Part shown: piece by piece, positions 2,607 through 19,670 of the stretch
Position numbering within the stretch: position 1 is the stretch's first letter
Layout of the letters: each line of letters begins with the position of its first letter
NCBI GenBank assembly: GCA_001821435.1
Contig: MHLP01000007.1
Coordinates: 1,620 to 65,619 of the forward strand
Source of the DNA: Candidatus Lloydbacteria bacterium RIFCSPLOWO2_01_FULL_50_20
GTDB lineage: Bacteria; Patescibacteriota; Minisyncoccia; Phycocordibacterales; UBA6899
Direction: 5' to 3'
Length of the DNA: 64,000 nt
Position numbers and translations under genes: made by a program
Notes under the pieces: model-generated
Told to the model about the DNA's origin: nothing
The model's input: only the letters and a program-made list of their open reading frames with translations
The model's database searches: none

Positions 2607-3824
2607 TTGTGGTATACTACCAATATTATGGAACAATCATCACCTCAGGTATATGCAACAGAACGTTTAAAAGCGGGCTTGAGTCCTGATGCGATCAAGC
2701 AGAATCTCCTTGCTGTCGGCTGGTCGGAAGAGGAGGCGAATACGGCCATCGTCGGAGGGCTTATCGCTCTCGGGGTCCCTGTTCCGCCGAACGGCGCGCG
2801 GACGGGCCACGGCAGACTCTCTTCGACCGTTGAAGTAGTGCTCAATTTCTTCTCATTTATCGCTCTTGGTGTTGTGGCGTTCGCGCTGGTGACGCTTTAT
2901 TACCAGATCATCAATTATTATTTTCCGGATCCGCTCATCATTCGTTACGGAGGCTCGGATGTCTCTTCGGAGGCAATCCATTATGCCATTGCTGCACTGA
3001 TCATCACTTTCCCGATCTATGTACTTGCCGTGCGGCTTTGGTTCAAGCGCTTTCGCGAAGATCTGGAAAAGGTGGAGACCAAGCTTACCAAGTGGCTTAC
3101 GTATCTCATACTGCTCGTCTCGGCGATCACCATTGTCGGTGACCTTATCGCGGCCGTATTTTTTCTCCTTCAAGGCGAAGTCACTCCGCGATTTTTCTTA
3201 AAGGCATTAGTTATCCTGATACTTGCGGGGATGATCTTCGGTTTCTATTTCTTAGAACGAAAAAAGATCCAATATCGCAGAGATATCCCGCGCCGCACAT
3301 TCCAGACCCTCGGATGGGTCGCGCTGGGGATCGTCCTTGTCGCGATCGTGCTCGGTTTTATTGTCGGCGGATCGCCCAGCACCGCGCGAAAGAGCGGTTT
3401 TGATACGCAGCGTGCAGATGATCTTCGAACGATAGCAAGCTGTGTCGCGAATTTCGGGATCAATCAAAAACGGCTCCCCGATACCCTTGGAGAGCTGTCG
3501 AAGAGCGGGCAATATGCATATTGTCTCTCGGGAATGGCAGATCCTGAAACGGGAATGCCGTATGAATATCGCATTGTCGTGCCTTCGGTTGTTGTCGGAG
3601 GAGTGCGCCAGGGAGAATTTGAGCTCTGTGCCGAGTTCTCGCTTCAGTCAGAAAGTGTCCCGATCGAGAAAAATGGCTATGGTTTTCCTCCAGACAAATG
3701 GAGCGAACATGGGTCGGGCAGAAACTGTGACACGGAAACGGCAAATTTGGAACGCTATCTTGATGCTCCTCTGCCGGGTGAAAGCGCAGTTCCCGCTCCA
3801 GCCATACAGTCGAGATACTATTAA
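2607..3824 (+). CDS. Multi-pass membrane protein: cytoplasmic N-terminal domain, about four TM helices, large C-terminal extracytoplasmic Cys-containing domain
   Basis: 405-aa ORF; TM segments after residue 85; the N-terminus is duplicated at 374.. Confidence 0.6.
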   Translation: MWYTTNIMEQSSPQVYATERLKAGLSPDAIKQNLLAVGWSEEEANTAIVGGLIALGVPVPPNGARTGHGRLSSTVEVVLNFFSFIALGVVAFALVTLYYQIINYYFPDPLIIRYGGSDVSSEAIHYAIAALIITFPIYVLAVRLWFKRFREDLEKVETKLTKWLTYLILLVSAITIVGDLIAAVFFLLQGEVTPRFFLKALVILILAGMIFGFYFLERKKIQYRRDIPRRTFQTLGWVALGIVLVAIVLGFIVGGSPSTARKSGFDTQRADDLRTIASCVANFGINQKRLPDTLGELSKSGQYAYCLSGMADPETGMPYEYRIVVPSVVVGGVRQGEFELCAEFSLQSESVPIEKNGYGFPPDKWSEHGSGRNCDTETANLERYLDAPLPGESAVPAPAIQSRYY

Positions 3825-4233: not shown

Positions 4234-4872
4234 ATGCGGAGATTATCCGATGAGCGACACAAGCATCTCGTTACTTTGCGAATGAGTGGCAAAAGTATTC
4301 CCGAAATCTCAAAAGAAACCGGAGTTGCAAAAACCACCGTTCTTCGCCACATAAAGGGTGTTCAAGTTCCACATAAATTTCAAACAATCCTTAGAGAAAA
4401 ACAAGGGGGGTCAAAAGATCGTGCTAAAGCCCTTCGAGTAAACATAACAGCGGAAACAGAGAAATTGGTGGGAAGTATTTCCAACCGAGATTACCTTTTC
4501 CTGCTCGTTGGATTGTATTGGGGTGAAGGCACCAAGATGGATTTCTCTGTAATTAACTCAGACCCGCTTCTTATACAAACCTTCATCCATTGCTTGAAAA
4601 CCCTAAATATAGCGAATGATCGGCTCGCTATTTCTCTGAGAGTGCATAGGGGAATTTCTATACCAGAAGCAAAAAGGTTCTGGGCTCGGACAACGGGTTT
4701 ACCGAAACAAATAATAGAGCGAGTTGAAATTATAGATGGAAAGAAGAAGGGGAAACTTCCGCACGGCATGTGTCGAGTGCGGGTGAGGTCAGGAATACGC
4801 GATCGCCTACTCATTCAAAGTGCCATAGATTTTATTGGAAAAGAATGTAATAAAGGAATAGTATCCCAATAA
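4234..4872 (+). CDS. Free-standing LAGLIDADG-like homing endonuclease (single motif) with an N-terminal HTH-like region
   Basis: Motif LLVGLYWGEGTK resembles LAGLIDADG; lower GC than the flanks; stop codon directly abuts tRNA-Arg. Confidence 0.5.
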   Translation: MRRLSDERHKHLVTLRMSGKSIPEISKETGVAKTTVLRHIKGVQVPHKFQTILREKQGGSKDRAKALRVNITAETEKLVGSISNRDYLFLLVGLYWGEGTKMDFSVINSDPLLIQTFIHCLKTLNIANDRLAISLRVHRGISIPEAKRFWARTTGLPKQIIERVEIIDGKKKGKLPHGMCRVRVRSGIRDRLLIQSAIDFIGKECNKGIVSQ

Positions 4873-9361: not shown

Positions 9362-9737
9362 CGAATAAATTATAGCATGCAGGTTTGCCTATCTTTTTAT
9401 GGAGAATGCGCAGGAGAAAGAGTGATAAATTTCCCTGAAGACTTTCTTTGCATGCTCGCATTACGTCGGGATATTTCTCAAGGACAACATTAAGGACATT
9501 TCATAATGTCCTTAATGTTCAGAATTTTTTCATTACCACATAATACCCATTTTTATATTTGAAATATTTTATCTTTGAGAGAATTTTTTTCACGGGTATT
9601 CATTATCACCTCATCACACTCTTTTATAATGAGCGTGCGCAAAAAAAAGATCACCATTCTTATTTTTTTAGGATATCTTTGCGGCCGTTTTTAAATTCCT
9701 TATATTTTTCTTTTGTTGCGGATTACACGCATTTCAC

Positions 9738-10616
9738 TTGGAATTTTTAACGAAAAATTTCCCTAAACTTATGATCATAAATTCACCCATACGAAATGTG
9801 GGCTACAAACGAAAATTGCCTTTTTTTATTCTCGCATGTTTTGCTGTTTTGTCGGGATTCATCTCCGCCCACTTTCTATTCACGGTTGAAGCAACCACCA
9901 GTTTTCCCATAAACAGTTCGTTTGAAAATACCGCTTCTTTGGAAGATGATGCGATAGGAGGGGTTAATGATATTGTCCTTGAGACAGAAGGGGATAACTC
10001 TGTGGATAACTTGGGCATTAATGAGTCTTTTTGTCGGCAGGCGTGACTACCGAAGCGGTCTCTCAGCAACGATATTCTCTCTCAAGGACAAAGCCGCAAA
10101 ATTTATCACAAAAAATGGAGAACCAGGAGGAGAAACAGGAACCGGCTGGCACGGAGAAACTTTTTGCAGCAGAGCCGGTAACTACCGATTCGCTTGATCT
10201 TTTTACTCTTATCAATAATTCAACGACGACGATCATCGGGAACATTCAAAGCGGCGATATGACCGGAACAGGAACGAAACTCTTGAATTTGCTTGCCACC
10301 CCCTCCGATCATTGGAGAGGCTGCCCCCTTAGACGACACGATGGGGAAGAATGTTTCCGCTTCTTTTCTCGAGTCCGACCATCCGACTGCTGTCACTTTT
10401 ACCGCAAAAGTAAAAGAAGGGCTCAGTATGCTCGGTTCCGCAGTAAACCCGCGAAGACTTTCCTCTCTCGACGGGTGGGTCATCTACATTATCTTTCGGG
10501 TAGTCCTTGCCGTAGCTCTCGGACTGTTTCACAAACGTCGATGCAGCAATCTCACCGTCGAGGAAGAAGCAATCAGGGAACAAATAACCAAAACAAAGAG
10601 GTATCCACGAATATAA
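9738..10616 (+). pseudogene. Possible disrupted gene for a secreted/surface protein split over three frames (9738-10046, 10031-10663, 10293-10616)
   Basis: N-terminal signal/TM segment, then successive overlapping ORFs in different frames, the last with a C-terminal TM plus basic tail; none individually convincing. Confidence 0.25.
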
Positions 10617-10677: not shown

Positions 10678-11886
10678 TCACTCCAGCCGCCAATTTCCGT
10701 CGGCACGGATGTCCGCGATGTCCGTCGTTCCGGAGCTATAGCGGAGCGCTCCTCCGACGGCGATCATGAGCGCGTTATCGGTGGAGAGCGCATGATCAGG
10801 AATATACAAAGAAATTCCCGGAAGTTTCTCGGCAACAGCTTCCGCGAGCATTTTTCGCAGACGTTTATTTGCGGAGACGCCTCCTCCGAGTACGATGGTC
10901 TTTGCGCCGGTCACTTCTGCCGCACGCACTGTTTTTGCGATAAGCACTTCAATGCATGCTTCCTCGAATTCCCGCGCGATGTCCGCCTTTTGCGTCTCGG
11001 CGAGCAGTCCGATCTTTTTTATAAGATACAGCACCGCAGTTTTGAGTCCCGCAAAAGAGAAATCATGATCACTGGACTGAAGCATCGGACGAGGGAGAGC
11101 AAACTTGCCGGGTGTTCCTGTCTCACCTAGGCGCGATATTTCGGGGCCTCCGGGGTAAGGAAGACCAAGCATGCGTGCCACCTTGTCGAAAGCTTCACCC
11201 ACCGCATCGTCCCGTGTTTCGCCGATCACTTCGTATGCACCCCAGTCATGCATAAGCACAAGCTCCGTATGTCCGCCGGAAACCAAGAGTCCGAGTAGGG
11301 GGAATGTTGCCGGCGCAAATTTATACCGGACATCTTCTCGCTCATTCCGCTTTTTTTCGCGCGAAGATGTCTCCGGAGCGATCCTCGTCAGAAGCGGTGA
11401 GAGTAGGTGACCCTCCATGTGGTTGACGGGTATAACGGGAATTTTCCATATTAATGACAGCGCTTTGGCGAAATTGAGACCAACCCAAAGCGCAGGCTCA
11501 AGTCCCGGTCCTCGGGTCACCGCTATCGCATCAAAGGGCGGACGGTCGACGTGCGGGATCTCCGTAATGAATTGTGCGAATAATTCCGGCTCATGATCGA
11601 GAATATCCCGGAAATCTTTTCTGAGCGGACTTTCGATGACATGCCGGCTTGTTTTTTTATAGAATCCCGCATCTTGTAATGTTTTGATGAACAGCGGAAC
11701 GAGCGAGCGTGCATGTTCCCGTTTTGCCAGCATAGGGAATACTCCGCCGTACTCTTTGTGTACGGCGATCTGCGAAAGCGTGTTATCGGCGAGGACGCGA
11801 AAAGTGACCGATGGAAGAGTGCCGTCAGTTTCAATGATGGAGAGCGCAGTCTCGTCGCAAGATGTCTCTATGCTCAATATGAACAT
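10678..11886 (-). CDS. tsaD: tRNA N6-adenosine threonylcarbamoyltransferase TsaD (Kae1/Gcp family), with an insertion
   Basis: N-terminal MFILSIETSCDETALSI signature; HxxH-type metal motif (NHMEGHLLS); 402 aa. Confidence 0.85.
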   Translation of the reverse strand: MFILSIETSCDETALSIIETDGTLPSVTFRVLADNTLSQIAVHKEYGGVFPMLAKREHARSLVPLFIKTLQDAGFYKKTSRHVIESPLRKDFRDILDHEPELFAQFITEIPHVDRPPFDAIAVTRGPGLEPALWVGLNFAKALSLIWKIPVIPVNHMEGHLLSPLLTRIAPETSSREKKRNEREDVRYKFAPATFPLLGLLVSGGHTELVLMHDWGAYEVIGETRDDAVGEAFDKVARMLGLPYPGGPEISRLGETGTPGKFALPRPMLQSSDHDFSFAGLKTAVLYLIKKIGLLAETQKADIAREFEEACIEVLIAKTVRAAEVTGAKTIVLGGGVSANKRLRKMLAEAVAEKLPGISLYIPDHALSTDNALMIAVGGALRYSSGTTDIADIRADGNWRLE

Positions 11887-12219
11887 GATCGCCGTCGGAG
11901 GAGCGCTCCGCTATTTCGGCAGTTACCATTAGAGCATAATTGCGAATAAATAGACAATTTACCGTGAAACACGCGAATGGAAACCAACGGTTCATTCAAT
12001 CATCATCTTCCTTGTGTTATAGTCTGAAAGTATTTGGCCGCTTAGACTGCAGATCGGGAATACGCATGAGAAAGAAAATCGTGTTTTCTTTCTCACCTGG
12101 AACGACGCCATCGCGTCCGGATACAGACCATGCAAAAAATGCAAACCTGTGCCATAGCTACGTTTGAACCGTAACTATTTCAGTTACGTTTTTATGCTTA
12201 AGTTTTGACTCGATGCGGC

Positions 12220-12305
12220 GGAGGAGGTGAGATTCGAACTCACGGTCCCCTTACGAGGACACTGCATTTCGAGTGCAGCGCACTAGACCACTATGCGACT
12301 CCTCC
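12220..12305 (-). tRNA. tRNA-Ser (anticodon CGA), class II long variable arm, no CCA encoded
   Basis: Reverse-complement fold: acceptor GGAGGAG/CTCCTCC, anticodon loop cuCGAaa, variable arm TCCTCGTAAGGGGACC, T-loop GTTCGAATC. Confidence 0.8.
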
Positions 12306-13193
12306 AAGAAAACGTTCCAAACGCTCGGAGTGTTTGAGATTACTCGTTCCAATTTCTTTGAAATATCTTACAATATTTTCTCTTTTCCGCAAATAGATCG
12401 ATCGATGTGTGCCAACTCCGCCAGTTGGATTATAATCTAGTGCCAGCAATATCTCGATGATATCTTTCCTTAGAGATTCGGAGGCACTGCTGAAGAGTAG
12501 TCCAATTCCTTGATAGCGTCGACCCTTTATTACACGAAAATCTTGGTACACCGATCCGTCCGTATCGAAAAGTCCCCGCAGAAAGCTTTTTTTGTAATTT
12601 TTATTTTGTGTTATCCACAGGGGAATATGCAGATTGCCAGCCAACTTATTTCCTTTGGGCATTCCCTTTTTGTGTAAAAAATTCACAAGATTTTTTGCGG
12701 TCACTACCACGGTAAGCGCATTCTGCCCCTTCTTTTTTCTGATGCGAGCGCGAAGACCAAAAAGGAGATAGATCATTTTTTGCACAAACTCCGCATGTTC
12801 ACTATCCGTTTTAGAATTAGTCGTTACACTCATCCAATATGTAGCGAGATGTCCATCGCCAATAAGGATGCCAAGGAATTCAGCGAGCAATCGTGAGTTT
12901 CTCGGGCGACGAATTTGAGTGAGCTGTTTGAATTGGGTTTTTCTTAAGTGATGAGTCCGTAGGGAATTTAATCCTCCCTTGCGCCGTCCTTCTTCTGTGC
13001 CAGGATTTCCATATAAACGAATGCGCGAATATCCACCCTCACTTGCAATATGCCTCAAGCGTGTTGCGCGAAATTCATTCATAAATTTCATGCTATATTT
13101 CGAGTAGCAATTTGTCAACCGGTCTACAGCAGGAAACTTGTTTTTTGTGCCGCATGATGTTAGTATCACAACCATCAGGCCCATCGTCTTCAT
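12291..13193 (-). CDS. Double-motif LAGLIDADG homing endonuclease (free-standing)
   Basis: Two LAGLIDADG motifs: LLAEFLGILIGDGHL and FLRGLFDTDGSVY; AT-rich; the stop codon overlaps the 5' end of tRNA-Ser and the start lies about 36 nt from tRNA-Glu. Confidence 0.8.
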   Translation of the reverse strand: MKTMGLMVVILTSCGTKNKFPAVDRLTNCYSKYSMKFMNEFRATRLRHIASEGGYSRIRLYGNPGTEEGRRKGGLNSLRTHHLRKTQFKQLTQIRRPRNSRLLAEFLGILIGDGHLATYWMSVTTNSKTDSEHAEFVQKMIYLLFGLRARIRKKKGQNALTVVVTAKNLVNFLHKKGMPKGNKLAGNLHIPLWITQNKNYKKSFLRGLFDTDGSVYQDFRVIKGRRYQGIGLLFSSASESLRKDIIEILLALDYNPTGGVGTHRSIYLRKRENIVRYFKEIGTSNLKHSERLERFLGGVA

Positions 13194-13228
13194 GGCGTAA
13201 ATGGAGGCTGAATGCCAGTTTTTAGACT

Positions 13229-13300
13229 GGCCCTATCGTCTAATGGTTAGGACGGCGCCCTTTCACGGCGTAAATCGGGGTTCGACTCCCCGTGGGGTCA
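13229..13300 (+). tRNA. tRNA-Glu (anticodon TTC)
   Basis: Acceptor GGCCCTA/TGGGGTC with two G-U pairs, anticodon loop cuUUCac, T-loop GGTTCGACTCC; resembles E. coli tRNA-Glu. Confidence 0.75.
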
Positions 13301-13348
13301 CCTAAAGCAACAAAACGGCTCGCAAGAGCCTGGAATCCGTTTCTACAT

Positions 13349-14962
13349 TTATATTCCTGTTTTTTCAGACAGTCTAAGTTCGGAAAAGATTATTCGAGCG
13401 ATCCGATCTTTTTCCAGACCATTTGCCGAACGGTAATATGTAGCACCGGTTTTCAGCAGTTCGGAAAGTTTTACGACATCCTTGATCGTCTCGCTCATTG
13501 AACCGTCAGACGCCTCCTCAGCGGCACGTAACCCCTCGAGCTCAAGACTAATACGCGCCTCTTCGGCCACGATTGCCTCCGCACTATAGGCACCCGTGCG
13601 TAGGAGCAGAAGCCTGTTTGCGGTCAGATATGCGAGGTCCTCGCGGAGTTTTTTCTCAAGACGCTCTGCGTTATCGAGGTCGTTGAGCCGCTTCGTTTCC
13701 AAGACGGCGATGCCCGTGCTCGCGCGTGTCTCTATATATTCGAGCTCCGCATCGGTAAAAGACAGCGCATCTATAAGAGTACCGATCTTTTCGCCGATGA
13801 ATGCGAGGGTGAAGCTCTTGGTCGAATTCGAGCATCCCGGTGCGCATCGCGCCCCGTAGTAAATCATTCCTTTCTGCTCATAGGGGGTGTAGACACGTCC
13901 GCAAAGTACACAGCGAATCATTCCTCGCAATGGATGTTCGAGAACTTCGGCGTAGTGGGCGCTGATCTTCTTGCGTCGCAGCTGTAGCTGGACTCTGCCG
14001 AACACTTCATCAGTGACAAGAGCCTCATGGCTGATGCTTTGCAGCAGAACGCCATCATTCCCAGGCACCTTGCCCGCATAGAATGGGTTGGTCAGGATCT
14101 TATGGATCGAGTTGAAGGTAGGAATCCGCGGCACGGGGTCGATCTTGAGCCGGATATCGTCCTCTTCCTCAGCGAGGATCTCCTCATCGGTTCGCCGCCG
14201 ACGCATCGGCGGCATCGTCAACCCCCGTGCAATCGCCCTTCGCGCCAAGTCGGCTAAGGTCCACTGTCCTGTTGCGGCGAGTTCAAAGAGCTCTTTAATG
14301 ATCGGCGCGCGTACGGGGTCAATGGGTTTGTGCGCCATGTCGCCCGTGTTGAGATATCCGACCGGTGCGCGATGTGTGCAGATACCTCGTGCACGATTGC
14401 TGCGCATCGTTAGGGTAACCTTCTCGCGCGTGACCCGCGAGTGGTGCTCGGCAAACATACCATCGATATCCATATGCAGCTCGCCCGCGCTCGTCTTGTC
14501 GTAGTGCGCAAGCGTGAAGCGGATATCGATGCCGGCCTTCATAAGCTTGCGGAGTATTGTGTCGTCTCCTTTGTTTCTGCTCGCCCGATCCCAGCAGAGG
14601 AAAATGACACCCTTGAAATAGCCTTTGCTCAGCAACTGCACAAGTCGGTGGAACTTCGGCCGCTCCACCCGATAACGTACGGTATTGTTGTAGCCGAACG
14701 TGAGTCTGAGGTCTTCCTTGAAACCCGAATGTCTTTCCGAAATGATCCCGTCGGTCGCGAAGCTCTGGAGCGTGATCGGCGCGATCGCAAGGTGCTCGCG
14801 GTATGCAAAGCGGGCATTCTCGGACTTCTGATATTTGATCGAATTCTTCTGGTTGGCTGTGTCGTCCGTGCTCTTGCGGTTGTATATGAGAAAGTTGTTG
14901 CGGTACTTGCCGCTCTGGATCTCTTTCAGTACCTGCTTTTCATGTTCTGCACTCCTCGTCAT
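13349..14962 (-). CDS. Large serine recombinase/integrase (resolvase catalytic domain, recombinase domain, zinc ribbon, coiled-coil)
   Basis: N-terminal catalytic region YNRKSTDD (Ser nucleophile); zinc-ribbon CVLCGRVYTP...CAPGC; 537 aa; 3' end lies 48 nt from tRNA-Glu. Confidence 0.8.
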   Translation of the reverse strand: MTRSAEHEKQVLKEIQSGKYRNNFLIYNRKSTDDTANQKNSIKYQKSENARFAYREHLAIAPITLQSFATDGIISERHSGFKEDLRLTFGYNNTVRYRVERPKFHRLVQLLSKGYFKGVIFLCWDRASRNKGDDTILRKLMKAGIDIRFTLAHYDKTSAGELHMDIDGMFAEHHSRVTREKVTLTMRSNRARGICTHRAPVGYLNTGDMAHKPIDPVRAPIIKELFELAATGQWTLADLARRAIARGLTMPPMRRRRTDEEILAEEEDDIRLKIDPVPRIPTFNSIHKILTNPFYAGKVPGNDGVLLQSISHEALVTDEVFGRVQLQLRRKKISAHYAEVLEHPLRGMIRCVLCGRVYTPYEQKGMIYYGARCAPGCSNSTKSFTLAFIGEKIGTLIDALSFTDAELEYIETRASTGIAVLETKRLNDLDNAERLEKKLREDLAYLTANRLLLLRTGAYSAEAIVAEEARISLELEGLRAAEEASDGSMSETIKDVVKLSELLKTGATYYRSANGLEKDRIARIIFSELRLSEKTGI

Positions 14963-15104
14963 GCTCGGTTGTCGGTTTTATGATCTCGCCATTGATAATC
15001 GTGTATCCCTCCGATAACAGACGGTCGTGTACGCTGCGGAGCGCTTCGCCCAACTCAACGAGCGATGCGATGGTGTCATCGCTAAACGTCTGTTCCTCGG
15101 GACA

Positions 15105-15165
15105 CAAAGAGGGGCAACGAGAAGAGTCAGTGTTGCTACACAAAGACCCTCGTTGCCCCTCTTTG
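15105..15165. repeat. Perfect 17-bp inverted repeat (caaagaggggcaacgag / ctcgttgcccctctttg) with a 27-nt spacer, 140 nt upstream of the recombinase start
   Basis: Read directly; the spacer contains a cacaaaga direct repeat; candidate recombination site or regulatory hairpin. Confidence 0.6.
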
Positions 15166-15475
15166 GGTACAAGCTTGTTCTGCTCTTTTTGATCTTCGTG
15201 TAGCTCCTTCATAGTACAAAATGTGTCGCGCCCCGCAAGTCACTCCCTGGGGATCGACCGTCAGCCCAGCGTAGTCAAAGGAGACCGGTAATCCAAAGAC
15301 GCTGAAACGTGACTGGCAAGTCGCTCGCCGCTTGTTGGCCCAGCTCCGTCCAGACTTCCGATGTCAAATGTTTCGGCCTTAGGACTCGAGTCGCGACACG
15401 CGTTGCGCATGTTGTGAAGTAGGTACACCAGGGCAATCGTTATACGATTAGGGGCATATTCATAACCCCTCTCGT

Positions 15476-18400
15476 ATGGAGGAACATCGAGGGCTCTTTT
15501 TATTTATCAGCACACAGCGGCGTCAGAGTGCGCATCTGGTCGCACTCATCGTGGTCAGCATAACTTTGCTCATTCCCACGATCGCGTTCGCAGCAAACAA
15601 CGACCCATTTCGCAGTGGTCGTGAAGCAGTCAACCCCAAGCAGTCGGCTGGTGTAGGTCAATCGACCGGTGCCATGACCTACAGCTACCCCCTCGTCATT
15701 CCTCCGGGGCGAAATGGCGTACAACCCAACCTCTCCCTTAACTATTCGAGCGATGACAAACGCCCAGACAGTATTTTTGGATACGGCTGGTCGATGACGC
15801 TTCCATATATAGAACGTGTCAACAAACTGGGAACCAATAATTTATATAACCAAGATACTGCACACACCTTCTTCACCTCGTCGATTTCAGGGGAATTATT
15901 GCCGGTGGTTAATTCCACACCGATTGGCGGAAGTTTTCTGGGGATGATCCTGGGCGCTTCACCACTTGCGCTTCTTGAAACCTCCGAAGAATCAAATACC
16001 ACCCAAACGCAGAGCGAGCCGACTGAACAAAGTGCCAGCCCAGCGCCTGATCCAACGATTGTGAGCGATGAGATTGCTCAGTCATTCCATACATTTGCCG
16101 ACACGTTCTCGACTGCTTTTGTCTATCACCCAAACGAAGAAGGAGAGTGGAACAGTGCTCGCGAGCGAGGTACTCATGATGCAAAATTAGGCATCCCAGG
16201 ATTTCCCGTGGCCGGCAAGTCTCTGTCGCTCGTAAGCGTAATACCCAACCCCCTCACCCCCGCCCTCGAAAACCTTCCGGCAACGGAACGCGCCACCCTC
16301 AAGGGCGAAGCCATCGCGCAAATAGGCAGCATCCCTAAGACGCTCCACGGTGATTATTGGATCGAGGTCACCGCCATGAACCCCATCGAGGGCGGCGTCG
16401 AATTGTTCGCCCGCGCCTGGGATACAAATGACGATCCGATCGGCTTCGGCCAAGACGGTACTGTCGAGACCGAACGGTTCCGCATCTTTAACCCTCCTAT
16501 CCTGGTTGACGATCCCAATGGAACTATCGTCCGCACTTGGACCGATGAAATAACCAACGAAGTAAAGACTCGCACATTGCGAGAAGACCCCGTTCAAGCG
16601 ATCACCGAAACGCTTTTACACACCATCAGTCTCGTCGGAAGAGAAGACACGCAAATAAACGCCGGAAGCGTCGGAAACACAACTGATATTTTTTATCCCA
16701 GTACCGACGGTCGTGCGTACCGCATCCCCGCATCTGAAACATTTGCCACGATTCGCGCGGGTGCGGGTCAAGGTTCTCCCACTGGAGAGACGTCTGCTGC
16801 CGCCGTGACGCTTCAAGCATCGGGAACCAGTAATCAGTACAACGTGCTCACTCGCGGATTCTTTCTGTTTGACACATCTCCAATAGGCACTGACAGCATT
16901 TCATCTTCCACGCTCTCTCTTGTGGCTTCCAATACTTCTTTCTTCGACGACTTCACCGATAGTGTGGGAGTGGTTGCCGCAACCACGGCGTCAGATAGTG
17001 ACGTCGCCAACTCTGACTTTGAAGGAACAGTGGGGAATACGACAAGGTGGGCAACCGACAGAACAATTGCCAGTCTTGCCCATGACGATGCGACCTATAA
17101 CAGTTGGACATTGAATGCGACGGGGATTGCCGGGATCAACAAGACAGGGATCACCAAGATCGGCCTCAAGTCCGCCCTTGACATTGATAACACCGCACCG
17201 ACATGGGGAAGCGAGCTTGCATCGAATGTCATATTCTATTTTGCAGACAATGAAGGAGCAGGAACAACCGCTGACCCAAAATTAGTTGTTGTGCATTCCG
17301 CAGTTCCACAGGGCCCCACTAGCCTTCTGCTTGACGATCTGACCAATCCCTCGAATATCGCCACGAGCTCCCCGTACTTCTCGGCGATCCACGCGAACGC
17401 TTCCACCACCGCCTTAGCTACCAGCTACCAGATCCAAGTGGACACCGCCGGCACCTTCACCGCTCCCTATTGGGATTCCGGGAAGCGCACCCTCTCCTCC
17501 TCCACTCCGGCAGGCATGCGCTCACCAAACATCTACGCCACCAGCACCTTCGCACTCGATGGCACCACCTACTATTGGCGTCTCCGCTTTTACGATCAGA
17601 TGGGGGGAGTGGGGGACTATTCCACCGCGACGTCGACATTCAGGATGCGTTCGGCATCGACGGTGCTCCAAGACCTGAATTACACCTACGACGCGGTCGG
17701 GAACATCATCACCATCCAGGATTATTCCGGCAACAACGCTGCTGCCTCGACCACGTACACCTATGACAATCTCTATCGCTTAACGAGGGCGAGCAGCACG
17801 GATGCCGTCCTCACCAACTGGCTCCAGACGTATGCGTATGATGACCTCGGGAACATCACAAGCAAGAGCGATGTGGGGAGTTACACCTACGCGGGTACCG
17901 GCTGGGCCAATCCGCATGCGCCGACGACGGTGAATGGGGTGACGTATGGCTATGACGCAGCGGGGAATCTCACAAGTGCGGGAGCTGCCAGCTACTTCTG
18001 GAATTATCGCAACCGACTGACGGACACCAACGTCAATTCCACCACTACCCATTATCAATACGACCACCTTGATCAACGTGTTCAACAAGACGTGAAGATC
18101 GGAGCCTCCGCGACTTCAAGCACAATTTATTGGAGTAAACTTTTTGAGACCAAGGGGGCGACCACGACTTTGTATGTGTTTCTGCCCAATGGTGAACTCT
18201 TGGCGACGGTGGAGGGGAATGGGAGTGCGACCTCGACGTACATCGCACATACCGATCATCAGGGTTCGACTAATGTGATGAGTGATAAGAATGGAAATCT
18301 TGCACAACTTGCCACGTATTATCCGTTTGGGGGGAAGAGGAATAATGAACTTTCATCAAATGGGTTCCAAGAAAAGAGAGGATTCATAGGTCAATATGAA

Positions 18401-19255
18401 GATGCCGTCGTCCAACTCTCGTACCTAAATGCGAGATATTACGATATCACCCGAGGCCAATTTGCAAGTGAAGACCCACTAGTACAGAAGATCGGCCTTG
18501 ACCTCAAGGAAGTACAGCGGCTTCTTCTTGATCCACAGTTACAGAATTACTATTCTTATGCTCGCAATAATCCGATCAATTTAAGTGATCCGAGTGGAGA
18601 GGCAACCATCGGTCAGTTACTATCGCAGATCAGCGCGCTACTCACACAATTAAGTGCGGCTATAACGAAGCAATACTCTAGTACTGTGTCATCTGTTTCG
18701 AGCACCCTGCAAACAGTGAGTGCGGCAAGTACACAACAGGTATCGAAGGCAGTGAATACTGTTTACAACTTTCATGGTGGCGCAGGATTAACATTTGGCG
18801 GTGAGACTTCAGTTGGCGTACGGTCAGGAGGTGCTGGTGCTGGCGTCACTGCGCAACAATCCTACTCCTTTGGGGTTTTTAAGGACAAGGGATTCAAGTT
18901 CAGTATCGGCGGTTTTAAGAGTTACGGAAACGCATTTGCGGCAGGAGATACTGAAGTCACTTCTGCGGAATTGAATATGTGTCCTGTACTCACGGAACGA
19001 CCAGTTATATTTGGGCTTTCATACGGTGTTGGTGTCGGTGGCTTTGTTGCGCCTAACGCTGGCAGTGTTAATGATTTGTTGGGAACATCAAATTCAGTTT
19101 CTTATAATGCTCCATTTGGTAGCTTTCAATATTCCTTGGGAGAACAGCCGACGTATGCCTTGACCTACGGGCCACACCTATCAGGCGTAACCCCAGGCGC
19201 CTCGTACACTCAACTCCCTGTATCCAATGAACATTGGTTTAGTACTAGCCCTTAA
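15476..19255 (+). CDS. Secreted RHS/YD-repeat polymorphic toxin, 1259 aa: signal peptide, N-terminal and middle domains, a short YD-repeat block, an RHS repeat-associated core, and a Gly-rich C-terminal domain of unknown function
   Basis: YD repeats (YTYDAVGN, YAYDDLGN, YGYDAAGN); core ATYYPFGGKR and NARYYDITRGQFASEDP; canonical boundary YSYARNNPINLSDPSGE before the C-terminal domain (about aa 1046-1259). Confidence 0.8.
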   Translation: MEEHRGLFLFISTQRRQSAHLVALIVVSITLLIPTIAFAANNDPFRSGREAVNPKQSAGVGQSTGAMTYSYPLVIPPGRNGVQPNLSLNYSSDDKRPDSIFGYGWSMTLPYIERVNKLGTNNLYNQDTAHTFFTSSISGELLPVVNSTPIGGSFLGMILGASPLALLETSEESNTTQTQSEPTEQSASPAPDPTIVSDEIAQSFHTFADTFSTAFVYHPNEEGEWNSARERGTHDAKLGIPGFPVAGKSLSLVSVIPNPLTPALENLPATERATLKGEAIAQIGSIPKTLHGDYWIEVTAMNPIEGGVELFARAWDTNDDPIGFGQDGTVETERFRIFNPPILVDDPNGTIVRTWTDEITNEVKTRTLREDPVQAITETLLHTISLVGREDTQINAGSVGNTTDIFYPSTDGRAYRIPASETFATIRAGAGQGSPTGETSAAAVTLQASGTSNQYNVLTRGFFLFDTSPIGTDSISSSTLSLVASNTSFFDDFTDSVGVVAATTASDSDVANSDFEGTVGNTTRWATDRTIASLAHDDATYNSWTLNATGIAGINKTGITKIGLKSALDIDNTAPTWGSELASNVIFYFADNEGAGTTADPKLVVVHSAVPQGPTSLLLDDLTNPSNIATSSPYFSAIHANASTTALATSYQIQVDTAGTFTAPYWDSGKRTLSSSTPAGMRSPNIYATSTFALDGTTYYWRLRFYDQMGGVGDYSTATSTFRMRSASTVLQDLNYTYDAVGNIITIQDYSGNNAAASTTYTYDNLYRLTRASSTDAVLTNWLQTYAYDDLGNITSKSDVGSYTYAGTGWANPHAPTTVNGVTYGYDAAGNLTSAGAASYFWNYRNRLTDTNVNSTTTHYQYDHLDQRVQQDVKIGASATSSTIYWSKLFETKGATTTLYVFLPNGELLATVEGNGSATSTYIAHTDHQGSTNVMSDKNGNLAQLATYYPFGGKRNNELSSNGFQEKRGFIGQYEDAVVQLSYLNARYYDITRGQFASEDPLVQKIGLDLKEVQRLLLDPQLQNYYSYARNNPINLSDPSGEATIGQLLSQISALLTQLSAAITKQYSSTVSSVSSTLQTVSAASTQQVSKAVNTVYNFHGGAGLTFGGETSVGVRSGGAGAGVTAQQSYSFGVFKDKGFKFSIGGFKSYGNAFAAGDTEVTSAELNMCPVLTERPVIFGLSYGVGVGGFVAPNAGSVNDLLGTSNSVSYNAPFGSFQYSLGEQPTYALTYGPHLSGVTPGASYTQLPVSNEHWFSTSP

Positions 19256-19304
19256 ATATCAAGGGAGATAAAAACTTTATTCATTTAATTCTGAACTGAA
19301 AAAC

Positions 19305-19670
19305 ATGTTAGAAAATATTATGATTGCTTGCTTTTTCCTTGCCGGATTTGATTATCTATTTTTTGGTAAAGTGCTAATTACTTACCAGTTCACCGAAACC
19401 GAATTGAGGGTGATCTTATTAAAATTATTTCCACTACACATTATTCCCCTCAAAATAGTGGAGAAAGTTGAAAAGATTTCATACCCCAAAATGTTTGCGG
19501 GAATGGCAATTTATGTCAGCGCATTTCGTTCACGCGCATTTGGTGGCGGTGTTCTCATTAGAACAAGTACCAAGCATGGTAATGAAGTCGTTGTGACCCC
19601 CCCCCGTGTTGACGAATTCATTTCGGAAGTTAAGAGACGCGTGAGAGAAAAAACCAGAAGAGAAATATAA
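19305..19670 (+). CDS. Candidate immunity protein (small membrane-anchored protein immediately downstream of the toxin C-terminal domain)
   Basis: Position immediately 3' of the RHS C-terminal domain; AT-rich; N-terminal TM segment (IMIACFFLAGFDYLFFGKVLI). Confidence 0.45.
   Translation: MLENIMIACFFLAGFDYLFFGKVLITYQFTETELRVILLKLFPLHIIPLKIVEKVEKISYPKMFAGMAIYVSAFRSRAFGGGVLIRTSTKHGNEVVVTPPRVDEFISEVKRRVREKTRREI

Follow-up and report, generated by a model that had tools for sequence, protein, structure and literature searches.

A free-standing LAGLIDADG endonuclease gene joined to a divergent tRNA-Ser gene in a Lloydbacteria genome: a probable tRNA-replacing mobile element

We analysed a 64,000-nucleotide (nt) stretch of contig MHLP01000007.1 from Candidatus Lloydbacteria bacterium RIFCSPLOWO2_01_FULL_50_20 (positions 1,620 to 65,619; hereafter the window), and in it a gene for a predicted LAGLIDADG homing endonuclease that lies between two tRNA genes. 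The longest possible open reading frame (ORF) listed for this gene covers 12291..13193 on the minus strand (300 amino acids, aa), with codons 1-37 probably lying over non-coding promoter and orphan tRNA sequence. Its 3' neighbour is a co-oriented, uninterrupted gene of 89 nt for tRNA-Ser(CGA) (12217..12305, minus strand; ARAGORN, Rfam tRNA 58.2 bits). On the other side, 35 nt from the start of the 300-aa ORF, stands an intact, divergently oriented gene for tRNA-Glu(TTC) (13229..13302, plus strand; ARAGORN, Rfam 61 bits), a conserved neighbour that delimits the site on the left and served as the internal control for tRNA conservation there. The ORF and tRNA-Ser overlap at 12291..12305 (minus strand), where the sequence GGA GGA GTC GCA TAG forms nt 1-15 of tRNA-Ser and at the same time the four last sense codons (GGVA) and the stop codon of the ORF, the reading frame being in register with tRNA-Ser position 1 and the stop lying 15 nt inside the tRNA gene. 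The G+C content of the ORF was 42.3% against 49.6% for the window, at the 3rd percentile among same-size windows, and no second endonuclease copy was found within the 64 kb. An earlier note on this DNA had described an AT-rich ORF with two LAGLIDADG motifs, set between two intact tRNA genes and overlapping the first 15 nt of tRNA-Ser with its stop codon, and all of this was confirmed. Its statement that the ORF starts about 36 nt from tRNA-Glu held for the longest ORF, but the first 37 codons are probably not coding.

The two LAGLIDADG motifs are LLAEFLGILIGDGHL (aa 102-116; 12846..12890, minus strand) and FLRGLFDTDGSVY (aa 204-216; 12546..12584, minus strand). Both motif helices end in acidic residues (..GILIGDGHL with D113, ..GLFDTDGSV with D212), and in a family alignment of 22 sequences G112-D113-G114 of the first motif and D210, D212 and G213 of the second were invariant. 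Two stretches of the ORF product matched the Pfam profile LAGLIDADG_3 (PF14528) with an E value of 5.7e-14 and 52.6 bits, against a cut-off of 22.5, in agreement with the family assignment of the earlier note. NCBIfam gave partial matches alone, to WhiA and to intein-containing proteins, and all of these scored far below the cut-offs; the intein similarity lay in the endonuclease domain. The AlphaFold model (predicted local distance difference test, pLDDT, 84.7) showed two alpha-beta-beta-alpha-beta-beta-alpha domains, and its best Foldseek match in the PDB was the archaeal intron-encoded enzyme I-Tsp061I (E 1.6e-12, template modelling score 0.79 on the target), followed by the endonuclease domains of the VMA and PI-PfuI inteins, I-AniI, I-OnuI and I-DmoI. 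Identity to the solved structures was 15-22%. An intron- or intein-encoded endonuclease was considered and rejected: no intron or ribozyme matched in Rfam at E<=1 anywhere in 11850-13400, both flanking tRNA genes are uninterrupted, and the profile matches include no Hint domains. The ORF is not fused to any host protein, and the free-standing context that had been proposed for it stood.

Many relatives are longer (~333 aa) and have an extra N-terminal helix-turn-helix (HTH) domain, HTH_3, for which the Pfam cut-off was reached in P0022 and P0009; this domain is absent from the window copy. The family has conserved motifs of its own, GNPGTxEGRRKGG towards the N terminus and SNPKH towards the C terminus. 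Against the closest relative, the 80%-identical protein P0002 on contig L095, the ratio of non-synonymous to synonymous substitution rates (dN/dS) was 0.12 over the core. These results indicate that the ORF product, by its sequence, fold and signs of mobility, is a free-standing monomeric double-motif LAGLIDADG homing endonuclease with predicted cleavage activity, and that the window copy is, as far as its sequence tells, an intact short form under purifying selection.

Hundreds of relatives were found at 30-52% identity, mostly in metagenome bins of the candidate phyla radiation (CPR, Patescibacteria), and an exhaustive search gave 205 clusters (50% identity) at E<=1e-30 and 964 at E<=1e-10. 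We took 80 homologous loci from species-representative genomes of CPR bacteria, Omnitrophota and DPANN archaea and scanned them for tRNAs. Results showed that a tRNA gene on the same strand lies at or overlaps the 3' end of the ORF in 78 of the 80 loci, and the other two end at a contig edge; the 78 are made up of 73 loci scored automatically, L031, and four archaeal loci whose intron-bearing tRNA-Gln ARAGORN missed. The distance from ORF end to tRNA position 1 was between -60 and +30 nt in 65 of the 73 scored loci, and the stop codon fell within the tRNA in 54 of them. The linked tRNA is tRNA-Ser in bacteria (anticodons CGA, TGA, GCT and GGA) and tRNA-Gln in DPANN archaea, and the homologs end in GGVA, GGVG, GxVPKWS or GxVPKRS, which are translated tRNA-Ser 5' ends. 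In a quick neighbour-joining tree without support values, all CGA-linked proteins fell into one clade and the TGA- and GCT-linked ones into others; the Omnitrophota copies (GCT and one GGA) formed their own clade, and so did the archaeal copies, all of them linked to tRNA-Gln. Decayed endonuclease copies also exist (e.g. L011 and L022). Abutment of ORF and tRNA is the rule across the family and not a local accident. No spacer is left, and therefore there is no room for the tRNA's own promoter between the two; the linked tRNA would be transcribed through the ORF or from within it.

The homologs of TsaD put the host near Candidatus Lloydbacteria, and via contigs of TsaD relatives the tRNA-Glu/tRNA-Ser pair was recovered in 6 further genomes. 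Synteny with TsaD gave usable sites in some relatives only, with L088, L091 and L092 having no tRNA-Ser near TsaD. The endonuclease was present between the two tRNA genes in the window, L090 and L095, and absent in L087, L094, L089 and L093 (4 of 7 sites empty), where the spacers measured 74, 108, 283 and 306 nt, respectively. The last two spacers hold an unrelated non-coding insert of ~210 nt. Four related genomes lack the endonuclease at this very site, and so it is no ordinary conserved gene of the host; this is the comparison of empty and occupied sites that the earlier note had proposed.

The tRNA genes at these sites were then compared with each other. TsaD of the hosts was 68-78% identical in all pairs (window and five genomes, all but L095), and tRNA-Glu at the site was 91-99% identical in all pairs. 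Identity of tRNA-Ser(CGA) was 83-98% among the four empty sites, 66-71% between endonuclease-linked and empty sites, and 68% between the window and L090. The window tRNA-Ser was 97% identical to that of L095, which carries the 80%-identical endonuclease, and the tRNA-Ser of L090 shared 80-83% identity with the tRNAs that accompany the closest relatives of the L090 endonuclease in other hosts. The endonucleases of the window and L090 were 47% identical and stood in different subclades of the unsupported tree. An exact 45-nt match to the window's tRNA-Ser was sought in the metagenome collection and none was found. The simplest reading of these comparisons would be that the endonuclease arrives with the tRNA-Ser sequence of its donor, by co-conversion or within the element, and that the foreign copy replaces the resident gene. 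The tRNA-Ser of the window is then apparently a divergent, xenologous copy and not the host lineage's own.

The insert of L089 (4967-5175) and L093 (between tRNA-Ser at 3056-3146 and tRNA-Glu at 3453-3527) is hairpin-rich, with tRNA-Glu on one side and a shared promoter spacer on the other. At its flank the first ~29 nt of tRNA-Glu recur as a diverged second copy, so the layout is that of the endonuclease element (orphan 5' piece, insert, complete tRNA) without an ORF. No Rfam match was found for it at E<=1, and the insert may be either a relative in decay or some other small element.

The same comparisons bear on the view that the gene was acquired anciently, is inherited vertically and now serves its host, as a WhiA-like regulator of the tRNA-Ser unit or as a tRNA-Ser factor, with repeated loss and no present mobility. 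WhiA is a conserved housekeeping protein on a LAGLIDADG scaffold that has a C-terminal HTH domain and has lost its catalytic residues. Linkage of gene and tRNA across very deep lineages, strong purifying selection (the low dN/dS given above), the N-terminal HTH_3 domain of the long forms, and the appearance of WhiA among the weaker fold and profile matches, the latter below the cut-offs, are all what such a domesticated protein would lead one to expect. However, both catalytic acidic motifs are invariant, the HTH domain of this family is N-terminal and optional, being absent from the window copy, and presence is patchy, with close relatives lacking the gene and two related hosts holding copies from different subclades. 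The atypical G+C content, the decayed copies, the switch of the associated tRNA among Ser isoacceptors and to Gln, and the foreign look of the linked tRNA speak against it as well. We rejected the assignment to a WhiA-like regulator, and consider domestication in general quite improbable.

Upstream of the endonuclease gene lies a probable decayed orphan 5' part of tRNA-Ser(CGA), reaching from about the D-loop to the anticodon arm (13093..13137, minus strand; placed by alignment and clade spacing, with an approximate 5' limit). This region (..GACCGGTTGACAAATTGCTACTCGAAATATAGCAT.. on the minus strand, ~13137-13090) contains GGTTGA at 13120-13115 and CTCGAAA at 13104-13098, with a spacing identical to that of a genuine tRNA-Ser. 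The putative first nt of the orphan is ~91 nt from tRNA-Glu, and the real tRNA-Ser starts 74 and 108 nt from it in empty sites. A position-weight matrix of the first 24 nt of 91 tRNA-Ser genes, run over the region with the ORF 5' end across the family, gave scores far above those of 278 control windows (Mann-Whitney p = 1.2e-16), and tRNA-Ser-like 5' fragments exceeded the control 95th percentile in 26 of 63 loci. Their distance to the real tRNA is fixed, at ~1005-1060 nt in the long forms and ~815 nt in the short forms. The best orphans, exemplified by L057 (GGAGAGGTGCGTGAGCGGTTGAAA) and L012 (GGAGAGGTGCCAGAGTGGTAGAT), match 16-20 of the 24 tRNA-Ser positions. In the clade of the window, GGTT, 12 nt and (C/T)TCG(A/T)A were kept in 12 of 12 orphans, which is the spacing from D-loop to anticodon loop in tRNA-Ser(CGA). 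The fragments of other clades stop past the D-loop, and there A7-U8-G9 of the fragment form the start codon of the ORF. In the archaeal loci the fragments are tRNA-Gln-like (AGCGGTCAAA..), and a TATA-like box comes after them.

Searches for a copy of the linked tRNA's own first 24 nt upstream of the ORFs showed no enrichment (mean 13.6 of 24 positions, against 13.4 for shuffled queries). It fits these results that the linked tRNA and the orphan are different tRNA-Ser types, because the fragments are visible only with the family-wide matrix and not with the own-tRNA query. The window orphan agrees with the tRNA type of the empty sites at the few positions that are informative (GGTTGA; CTAC..TAG), but orphans from distant hosts show these features too. 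Neither the window nor L090 yielded an orphan 3' part of tRNA-Ser when the sequence beyond the functional tRNA was searched downstream (p 0.46-0.99). Taken together, the architecture of the element is fixed: a decayed 5' tRNA fragment, the endonuclease gene and, joined to the gene without a spacer and in many cases overlapping it, a complete, functional tRNA of matching specificity. The earlier note had supposed a homing target beside the tRNA; given the decayed 5' tRNA-Ser fragment upstream, the tRNA-Ser gene itself is the likelier target.

In the Ser-GCT and Ser-TGA clades the ORF begins at fragment positions 7-9 (GGAGAT-ATG-GCT-GAG-TCG..; L082 84-130, L074 3731-3775, L066, L076 and L070), and with the ATG at these positions the ORF therefore starts in one tRNA-derived sequence and ends in another. 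In the four archaeal loci L064, L068, L079 and L083 (~4600-4800 in each) the tRNA-Gln is interrupted directly behind the D-loop by an intervening sequence (..AGCGGTCAA|...), at the same point at which the orphan fragments upstream break off. Lying at the presumed target, such an intron would shield the linked tRNA-Gln from the enzyme.

The place where the orphan ends raises the question of an intron origin, in which a group I intron in an ancestral tRNA-Ser encoded the endonuclease, the ribozyme was lost and a duplication of the tRNA rescued function. In the subclade of the window the orphan stops close to the anticodon arm, where tRNA introns classically lie, and group I introns are common in tRNA and rRNA genes of Patescibacteria, with LAGLIDADG enzymes encoded in the rRNA introns (PMC13011429, PMC11270868). 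Against this, the ribozyme models gave no match in the interval searched, the ORF fills the space between orphan and tRNA and leaves none for a ribozyme, no orphan 3' exon lies downstream, and in other clades the orphan ends after the D-loop. In addition, the survey of tRNA introns reports no LAGLIDADG gene in any Patescibacteria tRNA intron and does not mention tRNA-Ser (PMC13011429). An intron remnant therefore has very little probability in our judgement.

The orphan region also appears to hold the promoter of the endonuclease gene. A sigma-70-like sequence, TTGACA-17-TAGCAT with 10 of 12 consensus matches, lies at 13118..13090 (minus strand) within the first 37 codons of the long ORF, its -35 element coinciding with the D-loop of the orphan, and the ATG of Met38 (13082) follows 7 nt past the -10 element. 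The pattern TTGACN-17-TAnnnT with 6-8 nt to the start codon was also found in L009, L016, L017, L027 and L035. In its strict form the promoter occurred in 7 of 66 loci, against 6 of 308 control windows (p = 0.003); we rejected it as a family-wide feature on that count and claim it for the window's subclade only. Of the first 37 codons, 21 could be aligned with the relative on L095 and gave 3 identical residues, and AlphaFold predicted residues 1-19 as disordered (pLDDT <50). Since this part is unconserved, starts with residues of low pLDDT and has a promoter-like site inside it, the first 37 codons are probably untranslated and the likely start is the ATG of Met38. The probable coding sequence, deduced from the promoter position and the unconserved upstream part, runs from Met38 of the long ORF to the TAG within tRNA-Ser (12291..13082, minus strand; 263 aa). 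A leaderless mRNA is predicted for the 263-aa product, and this transcript would also have to supply tRNA-Ser. For annotation, the ORF 5' end seems to be over-called here, and stop codons inside tRNA genes are normal for this endonuclease family.

A plainer account would be that a free-standing endonuclease simply inserted into the 5' leader of tRNA-Ser, between its promoter and the mature 5' end, where RNase P makes the insertion harmless, with no duplication or replacement of any gene part. The tRNA-like fragments seen upstream would then be look-alikes made of promoter and ribosome-binding sequence, and the tRNA-Ser would simply have diverged. ORF ends that cluster around tRNA position 1 agree with this, as does the short promoter-bearing spacer directly before tRNA-Ser in empty sites; GGAG (Shine-Dalgarno-like) together with TTGAC (-35-like) could yield part of the tRNA-like signal, and the window orphan is statistically weak alone (p ~0.003-0.07, local alignment to the tRNA-Ser of empty-site relatives). 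Look-alikes, however, do not account for orphans that match most of the tRNA-Ser positions tested at a fixed distance from the tRNA, for the anticodon TCG standing at the correct 12-nt spacing from GGTT in every orphan of the window's clade, or for archaeal members that carry tRNA-Gln-like fragments instead. Plain divergence, for its part, fails to explain a tRNA-Ser that has drifted to the 66-71% level beside a tRNA-Glu kept at 91-99%. We regard insertion into the leader, and with it the reading of the fragments as look-alikes, as unlikely.

The reading that we prefer, and hold to be probable, is that of a mobile free-standing endonuclease with the tRNA-Ser gene as its target, which carries in a divergent tRNA-Ser of its own as the replacement and leaves a decayed 5' orphan behind. 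From the observed architecture, linkage, polymorphism, divergent tRNA and purifying selection we infer the following course of events. The enzyme would cut a tRNA-Ser(CGA) gene that is uninterrupted, at some point between the D-loop and where the variable arm begins, and the break would be repaired from an element-bearing copy, with the orphan and the tRNA body as homology arms. Repair would bring in the endonuclease gene plus a divergent tRNA-Ser that restores function, and the new tRNA-Ser would escape cleavage because its sequence no longer matches the target. The old 5' part of the resident tRNA-Ser would be left behind as the orphan. Expression would run from the orphan-borne promoter through the ORF into tRNA-Ser, with RNase P freeing the tRNA. 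We further speculate that, with the stop codon within the tRNA, RNase P processing would strip the stop from the mRNA and could limit endonuclease output.

Several points weigh against this reading. The cleavage activity of the enzyme, its target site and its transcript are all predictions from the DNA. The window orphan has the statistical weakness just given and its acceptor (5') part is unrecognisable, and the strict promoter is restricted to one subclade. The breakpoint varies by clade, at ~nt 23-26 in some and at ~nt 45 in the window's subclade. GGTTGAC and CTAC-TCG are common to orphans in distant hosts; because of these shared features the orphans may be carried along by the element instead of being remnants native to each host. 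Similarity of tRNA and of endonuclease does not track cleanly for the window, whose nearest tRNAs (L025, L066, L028 and L024; 73-75%) do not belong to the loci of its nearest endonucleases. Finally, the D-arm GGTACCGAAGYGGTCATAACGG, common beside family members, was rejected as an endonuclease-specific feature: among 70 metagenomic tRNA-Ser(CGA) genes that have this D-arm and at least 900 nt of upstream sequence, 68 lack an upstream endonuclease, most of these being on high-G+C contigs and probably not from CPR bacteria.

More tentatively, the whole family may be a natural cleave-and-rescue selfish element, which destroys the host's tRNA-Ser (tRNA-Gln in DPANN archaea) and carries a cleavage-resistant, element-transcribed replacement; we see this as possible, though as somewhat less than an even bet. 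In the synthetic cleave-and-rescue and home-and-rescue drives, which are engineered with Cas9 in animals, a nuclease destroys an essential gene and is linked to a cleavage-resistant copy of it. If the model is right, the present elements follow the same logic, except that they are natural and protein-only and that resistance and cleavage are putative. It would follow that tRNA genes of CPR bacteria and DPANN archaea are horizontally exchanged cargo, with the corollary that the D-loop introns in the archaeal linked tRNA-Gln genes sit at the enzyme's target and protect them.

Among known systems, the free-standing endonucleases of phages (T4 SegB in the tRNA cluster, mobE) home without introns, cleave the allele that lacks the endonuclease and co-convert flanking markers. 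They resemble the present gene in being free-standing between or beside tRNA genes, but are GIY-YIG or HNH enzymes of phage genomes, with no duplication of gene fragments and no fixed abutment to tRNA position 1. Closest in strategy are the mobile endonuclease ORFs (mORFs) of fungal mitochondria, which have produced hybrid genes in atp6 of Allomyces macrogynus and in atp6, atp9, cox2 and nad3 of Glomus (PMC3630166). In both, a free-standing LAGLIDADG (in mORFs also GIY-YIG) gene lies within a host gene, next to the foreign counterpart of a segment that it has displaced, the native version stays close by as an orphan, and the foreign segment is far more divergent than expected for the host; the ORF can also be in phase with host gene sequence. 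As for the position of the ORF between displaced fragment and functional copy, this was found family-wide, with the window's own fragment decayed, and the functional copy looks foreign by the identities of linked and empty tRNA-Ser. Unlike the present element, mORFs replace the 3' (C-terminal) end of protein-coding genes and have the orphan downstream. Here a tRNA gene of bacteria and archaea is the target and the 5' orphan lies upstream, a mirror image; the whole functional tRNA is apparently divergent, the orphan seems to be reused as promoter or start region, and the arrangement is conserved over a family of hundreds.

Closest in fold are the monomeric archaeal intron enzymes. I-Tsp061I, I-DmoI and the enzymes of CPR rRNA introns (PMC11270868) have in common with the window protein the double-LAGLIDADG fold, the host groups and conserved stable-RNA genes as targets. 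The present family differs from them in having no intron, a tRNA instead of an rRNA target, low sequence identity (as above), motifs of its own and often an N-terminal HTH_3 domain. Group I introns of bacterial tRNA genes encode LAGLIDADG enzymes of PF03161 in cyanobacterial tRNA-Arg(CCU) and HNH enzymes in Patescibacteria tRNA-Asn (PMC13011429). These likewise use a tRNA gene as their niche, with enzyme families specific to a given tRNA or anticodon, but they rely on self-splicing in the anticodon loop, whereas the present element is intronless, has an intact tRNA downstream and belongs to PF14528. The tRNA-linked arrangement is unmentioned in the survey of Patescibacteria tRNA introns, whose endonucleases are intron-borne and of other families or in other tRNAs (PMC13011429), and a survey of CPR rRNA insertions makes no mention of tRNA (PMC11270868). 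In open-access papers and preprints we found no earlier description of a LAGLIDADG/tRNA-Ser linkage in CPR bacteria, so that this large family apparently lacks one.

Other features were seen around the locus and in the metagenome set. Just past the 3' end of tRNA-Glu, 13349-14962 (minus strand) encodes a large serine recombinase of 537 aa with Resolvase and Recombinase domains, and 15476-19255 in the same region encodes an RHS/YD-repeat toxin-like protein of 1259 aa. The recombinase is absent at the equivalent site in L087, L089, L090, L093 and L094, and the region 13349-19255 for that reason looks like an island integrated beside tRNA-Glu; an exact repeat (>=16 nt) of the tRNA-Glu 3' end, sought in the window to delimit it, was not found. 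Two other short stretches of the window, 9400-9800 and 19200-19600, have a G+C content (0.32-0.37) markedly below their surroundings. In the 330-nt gap between tRNA-Ser and tsaD, a terminator-like 7-bp hairpin followed by a T-run lies at 12170-12188 (plus strand); it points away from the two genes, and upstream of it the plus strand shows no evident gene. A tandem pair of near-identical tRNA-Ser(CGA) genes was seen on two metagenome contigs of high G+C content from unrelated organisms (L165 4640-4950 and L170 1184-1570), the upstream copy having its T-loop interrupted by ~90-130 nt of G+C-rich sequence.

If the model of a replacement-bearing endonuclease is true, homing endonucleases would have, beside the intron and the intein, a third means of doing their hosts no harm, namely bringing a replacement gene, a strategy so far documented only for protein-coding genes in fungal mitochondria. 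The family would be a natural counterpart to the engineered cleave-and-rescue gene drives, and the old idea that tRNA introns protect tRNA genes from mobile elements would become testable. It would also supply a few hundred diverse LAGLIDADG enzymes whose approximate targets (tRNA-Ser, tRNA-Gln) can be read from their flanks, which would be useful for meganuclease engineering. For the ultra-small bacteria and archaea themselves, it would mean that tRNA genes are swapped horizontally together with a selfish gene, which bears on tRNA phylogeny, on annotation and on the binning of their genomes.

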